Assembly (NCBI GenBank): GCA_020354435.1
Contig: CP070646.1
Span: forward strand, 2,922,175-2,986,174
Direction of reading: 5' to 3'
DNA from: Gammaproteobacteria bacterium
GTDB lineage: Bacteria; Pseudomonadota; Gammaproteobacteria; GCA-001735895
DNA: 64,000 nt
Position 1 is the stretch's first letter. Every line of letters begins with the position of its first letter. Below, one piece after another: positions 3,754 to 56,285 of this stretch. A program made the translations under genes and the position numbers. Below the pieces are notes generated by a model. That model did no database searches. It was not told the DNA's origin and worked only from the letters and a program-made list of their open reading frames with translations.

Positions 3754-3947
3754 AACCCGGGGACAGTTTACTCTTTTTAGACGAAAAACCGGGGACAGTT
3801 TACTCTTTTTACAATACCCGCTCTGCCCGGTGGGGCAAGTCCCCTGCGTTTGCGCGCGAAGTACAGGTGATACCGGGGAGTGATGTCTGGAAAAAAGTAA
3901 ACTGTCCCCGAGTTTTTATAAATTAGTAAACTGTCCCCGGGTTATTT
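3752..3947. repeat. REP/MITE-like element: two direct plus two inverted copies of AAAACCGGGGACAGTTTACTCTTTTTA, forming a nested ~190-bp hairpin
   Basis: Copies at about 3752-3780 and 3784-3811 in the forward orientation, and at 3891-3918 and 3923-3947 in the inverted orientation. The same core recurs at 56189-56285 and in part near 12140. Confidence 0.8.
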
Positions 3948-28150: not shown

Positions 28151-28300
28151 AACCCGGGGTATCCCTTCGAACGCCCGGGGATGGAATCCTTTGTCAGGCT
28201 CCGGTGAGCCATCCCTGGCCCGTCCCGCCGGAGCGCCGGACCGGTCCATCCCCGGGCGCTAATCGCCTGCCAAAGGATTCCATCCCCGGGCTTCGGATGC
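28149..28300. mobile_element. MITE-like element: 26-bp terminal inverted repeats (CCCGGGGATGGAATCCTTTGTCAGGC at 28174-28199 and GCCTGCCAAAGGATTCCATCCCCGGG at 28265-28290) flanking a ~65-bp core
   Basis: The inverted repeat is near perfect, with one mismatch. There are four CCCCGGG boxes. No coding capacity. It lies immediately 3' of hemL, and a REP element sits at 28334-28359. Confidence 0.55.
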
Positions 28301-41780: not shown

Positions 41781-43220
41781 CTAGGTAGAGCGGCAATCGC
41801 AAACGATTTTACCCAGGGTTATGAGCGCGTTCTCGGTCTCCTGGTTCCACGGCGAGCCGCAGTTGATGCGCAGATGATTCTTGAAACGTCGTGTTGCCGA
41901 GAACAGGATGCCCGGCGTGATCGCGATATTGTGTTCCAGCGCCCGGTTGAATATATCGATACAGTTGCAACCTTCCGGCATTTCCACCCATAACACATTA
42001 CCGCCATGCGGATGCGAGATTCGGGTGCCTTCGGGGAAGTTCTTGGCAATCATGAAGCGCCCACGCTCGACCTGTTCACGCATGGCGACGCGCAGCCGGG
42101 CCAGGTGACGGTCGTATTGCCCGCTGCTGAGAAACTCGGCCAGGGCGAGCTGGTTGATCGAAGACGTTGCCGAAGACCAGGCCTGTTTGAATTGCAGGAA
42201 TTTCTTGTGGTAGCGGCCGGCGATGACCCAGCCCACACGATGGCCCGGCGCCAGCGTTTTGGAAAAGGACGAGCAACTCAGCACGATATTGTTGAGATCG
42301 TAAGACTTGGCCGGACGCGGCGGCTTGTCGCCGAAGTACACGCTGCCATAAACGTCGTCCTCGATCAGCGGAATGTCGCGCTCCGCCAGCAGGTTAACGA
42401 GTTCGCGTTTGCGTTCCTCCGGCATCTGGCAGCCGAGCGGATTACTGGTATTGGGAGAAGCCATCACGGCCTTGATATCCATCGTATCGAAGGCTTCTTC
42501 GAGTGCTTCGATGTCCAATCCGGTTACCGGGTCGGTATCGATTTCGACCGCCAGCATGCCCATTTGCTCGATCATGCGCAAAACGGCGAAATAGGTCGGA
42601 GATTCGACCGCAATGATATCACCGCGCTTGGCGACCGTGCGCAGGCTGATCGACAGGGCCTCGGTAGCGCCCGAGGTAATGATAATATCGTCCGCGCTAA
42701 CCCGGGTGTAGGTTTGCGCGTATTGTTGTGCGATCTGTTCGCGCAGTTTGCGATCGCCGGGCGGGAACAGGTAGTCCATGCTTCTTTGCGGATAGCGGCT
42801 GATAATGCTGCGCGTTGCGCGTGTCAGTGATTTAACCGGCATGAACTCCATCGACGGGTTGGAGGTGCCGAAGGGCGTGATGCGGGGGTTGTTGGCGTTG
42901 CGAAATACCTCTTCGAACAGATCGCCAAATCGTACGCGTCGGGCCCGGCCGGGGGTCGATACCGATCTGTCGATATCGTTGATCTGATTGACCAGCGCGT
43001 TGACGTAAAAACCGGATTGCGGCTTCGCGGTCAAAATTCCCTGGTCTTCGAGGTTGACATAGGACTGGGTTACGGTTGCAATACTGACTCCGAGCTGTTT
43101 GCTGAGCTTGCGCAGTGAAGGCGCCTTGTCGCCGGGTTTGAGATCACCCTTTTCTATCAGTTCGTTGATATAGCGCGAGACCTGTGCGTACTTGAATGTA
43201 TCGGGGCGTGTAACTGTCAT
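41781..43220 (-). CDS. MocR-type PLP-dependent aminotransferase-family (GntR-HTH) transcriptional regulator
   Basis: N-terminal GntR HTH (LPSLRKLSKQLGVSIATVTQSYVNLEDQGIL) with a class-I aminotransferase fold. Confidence 0.85.
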   Translation of the reverse strand: MTVTRPDTFKYAQVSRYINELIEKGDLKPGDKAPSLRKLSKQLGVSIATVTQSYVNLEDQGILTAKPQSGFYVNALVNQINDIDRSVSTPGRARRVRFGDLFEEVFRNANNPRITPFGTSNPSMEFMPVKSLTRATRSIISRYPQRSMDYLFPPGDRKLREQIAQQYAQTYTRVSADDIIITSGATEALSISLRTVAKRGDIIAVESPTYFAVLRMIEQMGMLAVEIDTDPVTGLDIEALEEAFDTMDIKAVMASPNTSNPLGCQMPEERKRELVNLLAERDIPLIEDDVYGSVYFGDKPPRPAKSYDLNNIVLSCSSFSKTLAPGHRVGWVIAGRYHKKFLQFKQAWSSATSSINQLALAEFLSSGQYDRHLARLRVAMREQVERGRFMIAKNFPEGTRISHPHGGNVLWVEMPEGCNCIDIFNRALEHNIAITPGILFSATRRFKNHLRINCGSPWNQETENALITLGKIVCDCRST

Positions 43221-43379
43221 GGTCTATCGGTAACTGTTCCGTACTCATTTTGAAAAAATTGTAACTGTTATTATAACAGTTTCGTCCATATTATTGCATC
43301 ATTGCTGTTGCGGCAGGACAACTGCCCCGGCAAAAAGTTAAAACCCCCTCCTCCTCCTCAGGTTTTGACTTATCGTTAG

Positions 43380-43412
43380 GCCCAATCAAACCAGATTGGG
43401 CCTTTTTTTTGG
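43380..43412 (+). terminator. rho-independent terminator on the plus strand
   Basis: GGCCCAATC-aaacca-GATTGGGCC followed by T9. Confidence 0.7.
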
Positions 43413-43416
43413 TTTT

Positions 43417-43700
43417 GGGCTGCTGCGCACCGCGATAGCGGCGTTACTTTTTGCAGCGAGACGCTCACATACTGATTTGTATGCTCGCGCCTTCGCTGCA
43501 AAAAGTGCCTTGCTCTCACGGTGCTCGCGACGCCCAAAACATTCGATTGTTTTAGAGTCTGGGCTGCTGCGCTCGTGATAGCGGCGTTGGAATTTCGCGC
43601 GAGACGCTCGCGTACCGGCCTGTACTGCTCGCGCCATCGCGCGAAATTCCGCCTTGCAGCTGCTTCGCTCGCGACGGTCTGCAGGCAAAAAACTTCCCCG
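43417..43700. repeat. tandem duplication (~144-bp period) of a unit containing a 14-bp-stem hairpin with compensatory substitutions between the two copies
   Basis: Unit 1 stem ACTTTTTGCAGCGA / TCGCTGCAAAAAGT. Unit 2 stem GGAATTTCGCGCGA / TCGCGCGAAATTCC. Of 14 stem positions, 7 differ, and all are compensated on the opposite arm. The flanks GGGCTGCTGCGC…GATAGCGGCGTT and GCTCGCGACG are conserved. Confidence 0.8.
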
Positions 43701-43799
43701 GGATTTGCTGCACTCTCTGAATTTCAAAGCCAGGTGACATTGCGGGCCTGCAGGCAAAAAGTGTTCAGACCATTGCTGTGTTTCAGGCTTTAAATTTGG

Positions 43800-43825
43800 T
43801 GTCATCCCCGCGCAAGCGGGGATCT
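43800..43825 (+). repeat. REP-like element TGTCATCCCCGCGCAAGCGGGGATCT (copy 3)
   Basis: Exact match to the family core, just 3' of tRNA-Arg. Confidence 0.85.
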
Positions 43826-43907
43826 TGTGATGGCGAGATACTCGAGTCCGATGGGTCGGTAAATGGCTTGGCTTTTTGGCGGTACGAGACCCATCGAAGG
43901 AGAGAAA

Positions 43908-43984
43908 TGGCGCGCTCGGCGGGAGTCGAACCCACGACCTTTGGCTTCGGAGGCCAACACTCTATCCAACTGAGCTACGAGCGC
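43908..43984 (-). tRNA. tRNA-Arg (anticodon CCG)
   Basis: The reverse complement reads GCGCTCGTAGCTCAGTTGGATAGAGTGTTGGCCTCCGAAGCCAAAGGTCGTGGGTTCGACTCCCGCCGAGCGCGCCA: a cloverleaf with a T-loop GGTTCGA, an anticodon loop CTCCGAA, and an encoded CCA. Confidence 0.9.
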
Positions 43985-44139
43985 TTTGAATTTCCCGTGC
44001 TGCTCGAAAGGCAGGGGCGTGATTGTAAACCATCCGGCCGCGATTTAGGCAGGATCGACAGATATTTTTTTTTGCGAATTATTCGCTTTTCGAGGATAAT
44101 GCGCTGCGTTTCGCAGCCACCCGACTCCTGGAGACCCTC

Positions 44140-44613
44140 GTGAGCGATACCCAACACGACACTTTTTCGAACCGTAATATCACCGTTCTCGGTATCTTGC
44201 TGTTGATAGCCGTATTTATCGGAGAGGTCCTGATCGGTCCCCATAGCGATGAAGAAGTCGTGGTCGAAGTGGCCGACACCATGGAAGATATCGCCATGCG
44301 CATCAAACCCGTGGTCTCAATCGAAGATATTCGCAAAAACATGAGTGTGGCATCGGCCGCGGCGGACGCGGCTGATAAATCGCCGGATCAGCTATATCAG
44401 AGCGCCTGTCTTGCCTGTCATACCACCGGCGCTGCCGGTGCGCCGAAGATTGGTGATGCGGGTGCCTGGGATCAGCGCCTGGCCAAGGGGCTGGACGCGT
44501 TGGTCACATCGGCCATCAATGGTATCGGTGCCATGCCGCCTCGTGGCGGCTCCCAGTTTAACGACGATCAGATCAAGGCCGTGGTCGAGTACATTCTCGA
44601 CGAATCCAGGTAA
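44140..44613 (+). CDS. membrane-anchored cytochrome c5-family protein
   Basis: CLACH heme-binding motif. C-terminal region LYQSACLACHTTGAAGAPKIGDAGAWDQRLAKG…MPPRG. N-terminal TM helix. The start codon is GTG. Confidence 0.8.
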   Translation: MSDTQHDTFSNRNITVLGILLLIAVFIGEVLIGPHSDEEVVVEVADTMEDIAMRIKPVVSIEDIRKNMSVASAAADAADKSPDQLYQSACLACHTTGAAGAPKIGDAGAWDQRLAKGLDALVTSAINGIGAMPPRGGSQFNDDQIKAVVEYILDESR

Positions 44614-44791
44614 CACTGCCGCTGCGCGGCAGCGTCATCCCGGAAAAAGCTAGCGTTTGCCGATGCGTCGGACCGCCGGGATCTCCCAAGCATTCCGCGC
44701 TCCAATCGGCGGCATAAATCCATCCATGCCCACGCGGCGGATTCATCCCGGAAACTGAATAGCGCTCATCCTGTCTTAACCCAAGCAACTG

Positions 44792-46297
<1,506 letters not shown>

Positions 46298-49639: not shown

Positions 49640-49909
49640 ATGTTGTGCCATATCTACCGCAGTAACCTTAAACTCGACACCTACCTTTATCTCACGACCA
49701 AGGATGATTTTTCGGTTATCCCGGGGGAGTTGTTGCGCGTGTTCGGGCCACCCGAATTCAGTTTCAGTTTCGATTTAACCGAAGGACGTAGGCTTGCCAA
49801 GGAAAATACCGCAGAGGTAATCGAGAATCTCGAAACCAGGGGTTATCATCTGCAGTTGCAGGACGACGAGCTGATCGAGGAAATGCTGGCACGCAAAGCC
49901 ATTAATTGA
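49640..49909 (+). CDS. ycgL: YcgL-domain protein
   Basis: CHIYRSNLKLDTYLYLTTKDDFSVIPGELLRVFG is collinear with E. coli YcgL. Confidence 0.75.
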   Translation: MLCHIYRSNLKLDTYLYLTTKDDFSVIPGELLRVFGPPEFSFSFDLTEGRRLAKENTAEVIENLETRGYHLQLQDDELIEEMLARKAIN

Positions 49910-49936
49910 CATTTGAAAAGTAGCCCTGTATCTCAT

Positions 49937-50061
49937 ACAGGGCTACTTTTCAAATGTCATCCCCGCGCAAGCGGGGATCTCCGACCAAACCCGCGGTATC
50001 CTGTTGAGCGGTTTTACAGGGCTACTTTTCAAATGTCATCCCCGCGCTAGCGGGGATCTCC
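49937..50061 (+). repeat. two-unit direct repeat (46-bp unit ACAGGGCTACTTTTCAAATGTCATCCCCGCG[C/T][A/T]AGCGGGGATCTCC, 79-bp period); the first unit is fused to a 21-bp-stem hairpin just 3' of ycgL
   Basis: Units at 49937-49982 and 50016-50061, with a 33-bp unique spacer. A degenerate third copy (GTTATCCGCGCAAGCGGTGGTCC) lies near 50135-50160. Confidence 0.8.
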
Positions 50062-55269: not shown

Positions 55270-56190
55270 ATGACAGACGATTTCAGCTTGCGCAGACGCA
55301 AACCGGGCGGTGGCACTCGCAAACTGCAAAACTGGGGCGTCGATTGCGAGTACGGCGTTTTGCGCGATGTATTGTTGGGCCCGGCCGACAATTATCAATG
55401 GCTGGAAACCAGCTCGGTATCGAAAAAAAGCATACGCCGTAACTACGAATTCGACGCCGACGTCGCCCGGCGTCAGCATGCCGAGATGGTGTCGGCATAC
55501 CAGTCGGCCGATGTTCAGGTGCATTTGCATGAACCGGATCCGGCGTTGCCATATCAGATTTTTGCTCGCGACTCGTCGGCCATGACGCCCTATGGCGCGA
55601 TTATCACCAGCATGGCCAACTGGTGGCGGCGAGGGGAAAATTTTCGCGCGATCGAAACTTACGAACGCCTCGGCATTCCGATTTACGACTATGTCACCGC
55701 GGGTACCTTCGAGGGTGGTGATTTTAACGTCATCGAGCCAGGCTGCGTGCTGATCGGCTGGGAGGGCGACGAGGGTCGCAGCCAGGAACAGTCGGCACTG
55801 CAGCTGAAAAACTGGTTCGAGGCCGAGGGCTGGGAAGTCAGGCTGGCCGACATCGATCCATTTTACGTGCACATCGATCTTATGGTCGTCATGCTGGCGC
55901 CGAAACTGGCGGCGGTTTGTCTCGAGTCGACCGATCCCGATATCGTTAGCTGGCTCAAATCGAAAAGTATCGAAGTCATCTCGGTGCCGTTTCAGGATAC
56001 GCTCGATCTCGGCTGCAACGTCGTCGCCCTCGGCAACGACCGCGTACTGATGCCCGAAAAGAGCCAGGTGCTCAAAGAGAAAGTGCGTGCTCATGGTCTC
56101 GAAGTTTTCGATCCCGATGTGTCAATGATCACGCCCGGCGGTGGCGGCGTGCACTGCATGTGCCAGGCACTGCGCCGCGATCCCGGCTAA
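55270..56190 (+). CDS. amidinotransferase/DDAH-superfamily hydrolase (dimethylarginine dimethylaminohydrolase-like)
   Basis: C-terminal GGGGVHCMCQALRR catalytic-Cys motif of the guanidino-group-modifying enzyme fold. Confidence 0.6.
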   Translation: MTDDFSLRRRKPGGGTRKLQNWGVDCEYGVLRDVLLGPADNYQWLETSSVSKKSIRRNYEFDADVARRQHAEMVSAYQSADVQVHLHEPDPALPYQIFARDSSAMTPYGAIITSMANWWRRGENFRAIETYERLGIPIYDYVTAGTFEGGDFNVIEPGCVLIGWEGDEGRSQEQSALQLKNWFEAEGWEVRLADIDPFYVHIDLMVVMLAPKLAAVCLESTDPDIVSWLKSKSIEVISVPFQDTLDLGCNVVALGNDRVLMPEKSQVLKEKVRAHGLEVFDPDVSMITPGGGGVHCMCQALRRDPG

Positions 56191-56285
56191 AAACTCGGGG
56201 ACAGTTTACTTATTTCGCTAGTGAAATAAGTAAACTGTCCCCGAGTTTTTTCTAGCGAAACAAGTAAACTGTCCCCGAGTTTTTC
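56189..56285. repeat. REP-like cluster: three copies of AAAAACTCGGGGACAGTTTACT, the first two forming a perfect ~30-bp hairpin between convergent genes
   Basis: Copies at 56189-56221, 56218-56251 (inverted) and 56252-56285. Same family as 3752-3947. Confidence 0.85.

Follow-up and report, generated by a model that had tools for sequence, protein, structure and literature searches.

The window analysed here is a 64,000-nucleotide stretch of a gammaproteobacterial genome that is 99.8% identical to a contig of MAG GCA_006227885.1. Between the genes for a MocR-type regulator and a tRNA-Arg it carries two hairpin-forming units in tandem, which are the subject of this analysis. The features of the locus are listed below; bit scores are those of R1, a covariance model built from 16 aligned and folded full copies of the repeat to which the units belong.

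41781-43220, minus strand: MocR/GntR-aminotransferase open reading frame
43240-43410, plus strand: conserved small transcript, divergent from the MocR gene
43378-43410, plus strand: intrinsic terminator with a 10-bp stem and T8 (context, outside the repeat)
43409-43548, plus strand: unit 1, a full-length subtype A copy (R1 147.6 bits, E 4e-38)
43412-43420 pairing with 43532-43540, plus strand: outer stem of unit 1 (left arm GTTTTGGGC, right arm GCCCAAAAC), which covaries between copies (helix 1)
43434-43445 in unit 1 and 43577-43588 in unit 2, plus strand: left half of the core, GATAGCGGCGTT
43456-43491, plus strand: central core of unit 1, with GCGAGACGCTC, the apical hairpin and TGCTCGCGCC in that order
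43468-43472 with 43479-43483, plus strand: apical hairpin of unit 1, CATAC with GTATG
43507-43513 in unit 1 and 43651-43657 in unit 2, plus strand: core partner GCCTTGC
43553-43692, plus strand: unit 2, a full-length B/C hybrid copy (R1 111.8 bits)
43745-43760, plus strand: orphan right-terminal arm (GGCCTGCAGGCAAAAA), repeating in direct orientation the last part of unit 2 (43676-43691)
43908-43984, minus strand: tRNA-Arg(CCG)

A sequence-only reading of this DNA had described adjacent units with 14-bp stems, compensated differences, an inner hairpin and shared flanks, and all of these are present. The units lie head-to-tail with a period of 143-144 bp and share 81% column identity when aligned with each other. 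Each contains a 14-nt stem that is 100% complementary (43446-43459/43493-43506 in unit 1, ACTTTTTGCAGCGA; 43589-43602/43637-43650 in unit 2, GGAATTTCGCGCGA). Of the 14 stem positions 7 differ between the units, each difference being compensated on the other arm (7/7). The apical hairpin is likewise CATAC/GTATG in unit 1 and GTAC/GTAC in unit 2. Common to both units are the blocks GATAGCGGCGTT, GCGAGACGCTC, TGCTCGCGCC, GCCTTGC and GCTCGCGACG, which as patterns match at these two places only in the 64 kb, where shuffled sequences lead one to expect none. Scanning the window with R1 recovers the same two copies and no others. The divergence between the units is too great for Tandem Repeats Finder to report them.

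Pairing extends well past the 14-bp stem, and about 125 nt of each unit can be folded, on either strand, into one long imperfect hairpin. For unit 1 the fold energy is -62.8 kcal/mol on the plus strand and -73.7 kcal/mol on the minus strand (z scores of -6.8 and -9.4 relative to shuffles), and the fold of unit 2 is weaker by the same comparison (z scores of -2.6 and -3.6, respectively). Comparison with subtype C copies in loci L127, L070 and L013 identifies unit 2 as a hybrid: its left arm and variable stem are of subtype B and its right outer arm (GCCTTGCAGCTGCTTCGC) is of subtype C. Its outer stem is mispaired because a B left arm has been joined to a C right outer arm. The orphan arm downstream of unit 2 is likely the leftover of an older copy, and a terminal arm of this kind (GGCCTGAAGGCAAAAAA) also closes the orthologous copies in L020 and L024.

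Unit 1 starts within a few bases of the T-run of the terminator at 43378-43410, which is the typical position for the family, and a scan of the locus for terminators calls this upstream one only. We dismissed the idea that the repeat is itself an intrinsic terminator, because a T-run precedes and an A-run follows the hairpin on both strands. The small transcript that ends at this terminator has a promoter-like TTGAAA-N16-TATAAC, followed by a CCUCCUCCUC run and then the terminator, the stem of which covaries across five orthologous loci. It gives a weak Rfam match to Betaproteobacteria_toxic_sRNA (23.8 bits, for a gathering score of 50). A short polyproline ORF over the upstream CCTCC run was rejected, as orthologues show a 2-nt indel. 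Direct repeats of the form TGTAACTGT(C/T)AT at 43209 and 43260 resemble MocR boxes. A solitary G+C-rich hairpin (ATCCCCGCGCAAGCGGGGAT, 43803-43826) lies in the interval that separates unit 2 from the tRNA-Arg 3' end. Despite a superficial likeness we do not regard it as a type I-E CRISPR repeat, as it stands alone with neither an array nor a T-run. The window holds at least three further palindromic repeat families (56189-56284 with 3784-3916; 49907-50038; 28173-28291), represented by AAAAACTCGGGGACAGTTTACTT..., with inverted and tandem copies, TGACATTTGAAAAGTAGCCCTGTAT, which contains GTAG, and GCCCGGGGATGGAATCCTTTGTCAGGC. Mosaic hairpin repeats abound in this genome.

Units 1 and 2 are neighbouring members of a lineage-specific family of palindromic intergenic repeats of about 130 bp that had not been described before. 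We scanned the pattern GATAGCGGCGTT-N(6-16)-GCGAGACGCTC against 185,579 species genomes, one per species, and obtained 18 loci, distributed over about 12 MAGs of uncultured Gammaproteobacteria. There are several MAGs with two or more loci, and contig ends account for many of the matches. Metagenomes were scanned with an independent pattern from the 3' half and the matches then checked with R1, which confirms true copies in about 35 metagenome contigs among the matches listed. Together, the window, MAG and metagenome loci contain at least 73 copies that reach 84 bits or more with R1, with 71 distinct sequences. The search for further copies by covariance model, which the sequence-only reading had proposed as a check, has therefore yielded over 70 strong copies. 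They occupy about 55 sites among the loci gathered (42 solo copies, 9 doublets, 3 triplets and 1 quadruplet). Grouping by eye on upstream context gives 16 independent sites in unrelated surroundings, among them groEL, a tRNA-Thr, several small transcripts and various protein genes.

The hosts belong to an uncultured gammaproteobacterial lineage found chiefly in marine and sediment samples. Phage, plasmid and IMG/VR collections contain no true copies, and pattern matches in viral sequences are due to chance. An Rfam 15 cmscan of 42000-45500, with E values up to 10, gives no credible match on either unit, so that the Rfam search suggested earlier assigns them to no family; a literature search for the core motifs turned up chance primer matches only. 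Extrapolating from density rather than from a count (a single site in the 64 kb of the window and roughly one additional site for every 30 kb of the gathered loci), a genome would carry some 50-100 sites. The source annotation places an 86-aa gene without a Pfam match in the repeat region of L020 (945-1205) and L021 (506-766), and this gene is probably a spurious ORF made by the repeat.

We then examined the pairing across the 71 distinct copies. Paired cells make up 94.2% of the total, compared with 80.4% after shuffling, and in 28 of the 45 pairs both partners have changed (398 cells). Covariation scores 0.355, compared with 0.126 for shuffled alignments (reached in 0 of 500) and 0.05-0.08 for slid partners. 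This alignment was fitted to R1 and somewhat favours structure, within the freedom that the invariant anchors restrict; a sequence-only MAFFT alignment gives the same picture. The earlier observation that sequence diverges while pairing is retained is thus correct, and it holds for the whole family: 94% of cells pair and double changes are found in 28 of 45 pairs.

Three stems covary around a fixed centre: an outer stem, a middle stem and a variable stem of 10 bp, in which the sequence is free and complementarity is kept. The centre is an asymmetric internal core, GCGGCGTT...GCGAGACGCTC...GCTCGCGCC.TCGC...GCCTTGC, in which GCGGCGTT pairs with GCCTTGC and GAGACGCTC with GCTCGCGCC; GCGGCGTT and GCCTTGC are invariant in all 71 copies. 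The termini (helix 1) are the most variable part of the element. At least three subtypes (A, B and C) can be distinguished, and the difference between units 1 and 2 is a difference between old, widespread subfamilies. The units differ because they descend from these subfamilies, and not because a new RNA was selected at this locus.

Copies of the repeat follow a rule of position. Among the 16 independent sites, 10 start 0-10 nt past a hairpin with a T-run of at least six; the remainder follow a weak terminator-like sequence (1), a stop codon (3), the CCA end of tRNA-Thr (1) or none of these (1). Counted together, 15 of the 16 place the element in sense orientation immediately behind a terminator, a stop codon or the 3' end of a tRNA. 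At the terminator sites the A-run of the right arm pairs with the T-run and a few site-specific bases, and at the tRNA and stop-codon sites pairing ends at the gene boundary. For this reason the tRNA and stop-codon sites lend no support to the idea that the right arm is copied from the left flank on insertion. Inspection of the flanks for target-site duplication revealed none.

Elsewhere in the gathered loci, other short conserved segments with intrinsic terminators, each followed by a repeat copy, occur near divergent genes (upstream of the copies in L001, L018, L048, L054, L088, L096 and L144; in L011 and L076; and in L003, L094, L107, L110 and L131). Two examples are ...GTCCTCCTTTGGTTATA(A)TTGTCGATTACGAC... 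and ...AAGACCCTCCTGTTATACGTTTGTGTG.... These terminator-ended segments may be further small RNAs.

The orientation of the repeat is polar with respect to replication. With the copies masked, flanking GC skew is positive on the element's plus strand in 20 of 21 site groups (binomial p = 2e-5), and in all loci examined opposite orientations never occur within one locus. Coding sequence near the copies is about evenly split between the strands, and skew on the element strand is positive both for genes on the same strand (+0.045, 152 kb) and for genes on the opposite strand (+0.028, 154 kb). Orientation therefore tracks replication and not transcription, with GC skew serving only as a proxy for replication direction. 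In the window itself, skew is positive in 30 of 32 bins. G-richness marks the leading strand, and the G-rich plus strand of the element therefore lies on the lagging-strand template. Such polarity could possibly have a passive origin, in which copies whose stabler hairpin forms on the lagging-strand template are preferentially lost.

Decay and turnover are evident at many sites, and solo halves and truncated copies are common. The groEL site is found with a full copy (L160), with an internal deletion that joins GCGGCG to GCGACG across the hairpin (L163), as a remnant (L162) and empty (L161), the last being too diverged downstream to place the junction. Locus L018 was dismissed as a clean empty site, as it holds a decayed copy. 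The flanks of L017 and L007 are 98% identical and their elements only 72% identical. The orthologue of the L007 copy survives in both L017 and L144 as a right-half remnant, so that L017 and L007 each kept a different member of what was once a tandem pair. Orthologues of the MocR locus differ in content: some have a single copy, which may belong to subtype A, B or C, L024 has a diverged copy that is paired anew, and L026 has a decayed remnant, so that copy number ranges from a decayed remnant to two; the site is nevertheless kept in genomes whose MocR proteins are 83-95% identical.

Tandem arrays contain up to four copies, separated by spacers of 3-45 nt without an ORF. Downstream of groEL the repeated unit is the element plus the terminator (period 176-184 bp), and in other arrays it is the element alone (period 143-148 bp). 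Some copies carry in their right arm a REP-like module of about 50 nt, inserted at the fixed point GCTCG^CGACG. The module reads CTCGAGTAC..GTACGAG followed by GTGCCGGNTGCGC-CGGGA-GCGCAANCCGGCCTG, forms two small hairpins, and reads GCAG-GCCGG... on the minus strand. It occurs in L010, L013, L016, L020 (copy 1070-1204) and L088 and is absent from L039. The L016 and L039 copies are otherwise identical, and the module therefore looks recently mobile and targeted to the repeat. For the repeat itself, no transposition event was caught directly among the loci compared. Many sites are common to diverged genomes, and much of its history has therefore been vertical; amplification may have proceeded through local duplication alone.

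We searched for an enzyme that could mobilise the repeat. There is no Y1/HUH transposase linked to it in the window or in about 360 kb around the copies, as judged by a phmmer search of 6,492 ORFs, taken from the window and every gathered locus, with YafM and IS200 TnpA as queries. This negative is weak, because RAYTs are single-copy per genome. The sole match lies on an unrelated high-GC metagenome contig (L087, 2400-3150; Pfam Y1_Tnp PF01797, E 3.7e-10) that had been gathered through a chance pattern match; it is a RAYT-type Y1 transposase flanked by canonical GTAG REPs (GTAGGCCGACTCTCCGAGTCGGCGCACC). It therefore validates the search as a positive control and has no link to the repeat family. 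An autonomous parent, with left and right halves split around an ORF, was sought among the loci and not found.

The explanation that we consider probable is a REPIN/ERIC-like palindromic repeat, non-coding, non-autonomous and polar with respect to replication, that is propagated or retained as a single-stranded DNA hairpin. Mobility and the single-stranded DNA mechanism are what we infer from the patterns described above. The element would spread or be amplified through a single-stranded hairpin at the replication fork and would land just 3' of T-rich gene ends, that is, terminator T-runs, stop codons and tRNA ends. Later turnover would come from tandem duplication, hairpin-mediated deletion and recombination between copies, and covariation would arise as only hairpin-competent lineages persist or propagate. 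Among the candidates first put forward for the two units, a recognition hairpin for a recombinase or transposase comes nearest to this explanation, although no mobilising enzyme was found.

Some features point elsewhere: the core is asymmetric and invariant, and nearly every copy sits at the 3' end of a co-oriented transcription unit, both of which could reflect an RNA or protein-binding function. The repeat might thus be a cis-acting RNA element at transcript 3' ends (a stabiliser, a termination back-up, an insulator against read-through, or a site for RNase III or another protein) that has been recruited repeatedly, as has been proposed for some REP and ERIC copies. The sense orientation right after a terminator, stop codon or tRNA 3' end at 15 of 16 sites fits such a role, as do an invariant core framed by covarying stems and a copy at groEL that lies between the stop codon and the terminator and is hence transcribed. 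Four G.U (G.T in DNA) positions in the plus-strand core are also fixed or nearly so, although they are offset by fixed A.C positions. The mismatches at variable positions, however, do not look RNA-like. Since A.C on one strand is G.U on the other, an RNA functional from one strand is expected to show mostly G.U, and the non-Watson-Crick cells are instead divided among G.U (94), A.C (62) and other combinations (103), a spectrum without a clear strand-specific RNA signature.

Stability also counts against an RNA read from the plus strand: in 63 of 64 copies the minus-strand fold is the stabler one, the gap being 8.7 kcal/mol under RNA and 4.0 under DNA parameters. Little RNA would be made at the 10 of 16 sites that lie downstream of a strong intrinsic terminator, and at one conserved site the element is antisense to the genes on either side. 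Moreover, orientation follows GC skew even beside genes on the opposite strand, hybrid, truncated and internally deleted copies are tolerated, and no Rfam family matches. We therefore regard the cis-acting RNA element as unlikely, while giving it more weight than the alternatives that follow. The proposal of selection on secondary structure stands insofar as pairing is kept across the family; its extension to the RNA level is not supported, given the mix of mismatches, the stabler minus strand and the location of most copies past a terminator. The data do not support RNA selection as the origin of the covariation, and a role in RNA may remain for transcribed copies such as the one in the groEL 3' UTR.

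There is a small chance that the family represents something new, either a replication-coupled hairpin element, a whole-length palindrome with its core read on one DNA strand, that is inserted or retained right behind T-runs at the 3' ends of transcripts on the lagging-strand template and is mobilised by an enzyme not yet linked to such repeats, or a strand-specific single-stranded DNA signal domesticated by the host. Taken on its own, a signal that serves the host during replication (a priming or primosome hairpin, or a site for a nucleoid protein or topoisomerase) would make the polarity functional. It would accord with the strictness of that polarity, with an invariant asymmetric core that may resemble a protein recognition site, and with long retention at some sites, such as the MocR locus. 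We nevertheless find it improbable: copies decay freely (the L026 remnant, the L162 and L163 deletions), spacing is irregular with clustering in tandem arrays, and we know of no chromosomal replication-signal system that uses dispersed repeats of 130 bp.

Explanations confined to this locus fare much worse. The sequence-only reading had offered two of them, paralogous small RNAs and a structured trailer at the 3' end of the tRNA-Arg transcript. Stable hairpins with compensated stem differences speak for these, and at another site a copy does come right after the CCA end of a tRNA-Thr. Yet the two units belong to two old subfamilies and share their architecture with copies at 16 or more unrelated sites, and at orthologues of this very locus both copy number (from a remnant to two) and subtype vary. 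A promoter scan calls no site before either unit, and unit 1 begins only a few bases past a terminator. The trailer is further contradicted by strand and distance, as the units lie opposite to the tRNA-Arg, on the 3' side of a plus-strand terminator and more than 215 nt from the tRNA 3' end, and the family occurs in many other contexts. Either version is thus very improbable.

Least probable of all are integron-type attC sites, that is, folded single-stranded recombination substrates in an array: the imperfect hairpins of similar length, with conserved unpaired features and variable stems, the tandem arrays in one orientation and a polarity relative to replication like the one reported for chromosomal integrons (PMC5371416) are set against the lack of RYYYAAC/GTTRRRY boxes at the hairpin feet, spacers of 3-45 nt with no cassette ORFs between copies, a scatter over at least 16 sites instead of one array, and no integrase in the gene tables of the protein-fetched loci.

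For annotation, these hairpins are best masked as a repeat family of a widespread sediment lineage, and not called as sRNAs or short ORFs. The family also carries a caution, as strong covariation does not by itself prove a functional RNA, and here is a well-behaved case of covariation without a demonstrated RNA function. Whole-hairpin covariation, an invariant asymmetric core, near-exclusive placement at 3' ends and strict polarity make it a clean natural system for the spread and persistence of palindromic repeats. As such, it can help to tell RNA selection from selection on single-stranded DNA.

Compared with known systems, the repeat resembles group IIC introns in site preference alone. Group IIC introns insert in sense orientation right after intrinsic terminators, but the repeat has neither intron structure nor a reverse transcriptase and is just 130 nt long, and Rfam gives no group II intron match in 42000-45500 even at E values up to 10. 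The likeness to IS200/IS605 elements is one of behaviour only. These have imperfect hairpins that are read on one strand, insert 3' of a short single-stranded DNA target without duplication, and have the genomic orientation expected for the lagging-strand template (PMC5027513, PMC3333891). The repeat shares the orientation bias relative to replication. It differs in being a single whole-length palindrome, where IS200/IS605 elements have two subterminal hairpins around a gene or its remnant; there is no TnpA or TnpB nearby, and we recognise no cleavage or guide sequences within it.

REPINs provide a closer parallel in many respects. They are extragenic, number tens per genome and form hairpins of about 100 nt in which compensatory changes are common; their tandem clusters include flanking sequence and reach a maximum of four, insertions occur into or next to copies, and inheritance is largely vertical (PMC3116915). 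REPs lie mostly downstream of coding regions (PMC3733652), and a REPIN consists of two inverted REPs, each a palindrome of 20-40 bp with a 5' GTAG or CGTC tag (PMC3733652, PMC3333891). The repeat is likewise extragenic, with compensatory changes in its hairpin, tandem clusters of up to four that include flanks, and insertion into copies. Its halves, however, are not palindromic, and there is no conserved GTAG or CGTC tag at the foot of the hairpin: the CGTC that the minus strand of GCTCGCGACG contains is no unpaired tag beside a stem of 8-9 bp. In addition, the conserved part is an internal asymmetric core and not the ends, and it is a separate REP-like module, with a GCAG head, that inserts into the repeat. 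A cognate RAYT is usually flanked by REPIN-type repeats, and none was found in the window and loci. Strict replication polarity is a further difference, as a symmetric REPIN has no comparable orientation.

We also dismissed a classical MITE, which has conserved terminal inverted repeats, a target-site duplication and a parent IS with matching ends, as the termini here are the most variable part, inspection of the flanks shows no target-site duplication and no halves were found around an ORF. Unlike Correia-type MITEs in particular, the repeat has no conserved terminal inverted repeats and no target duplication. The repeat thus lacks the defining features of REPINs, classical MITEs and attC sites. 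ERIC elements are intergenic, noncoding, whole-length hairpins of about 127-150 bp near gene ends, with longer variants produced by insertion at a fixed site. The repeat departs from ERIC in its host lineage, which is not enterobacterial; to our knowledge, polarity and terminator adjacency have not been described for the ERIC, YPAL or Correia families. Likened by description rather than by consensus alignment, the repeat nonetheless shares with the ERIC/IRU, YPAL and Correia-type families its size, its whole-length hairpin, its position at gene ends and insertion at a fixed site.
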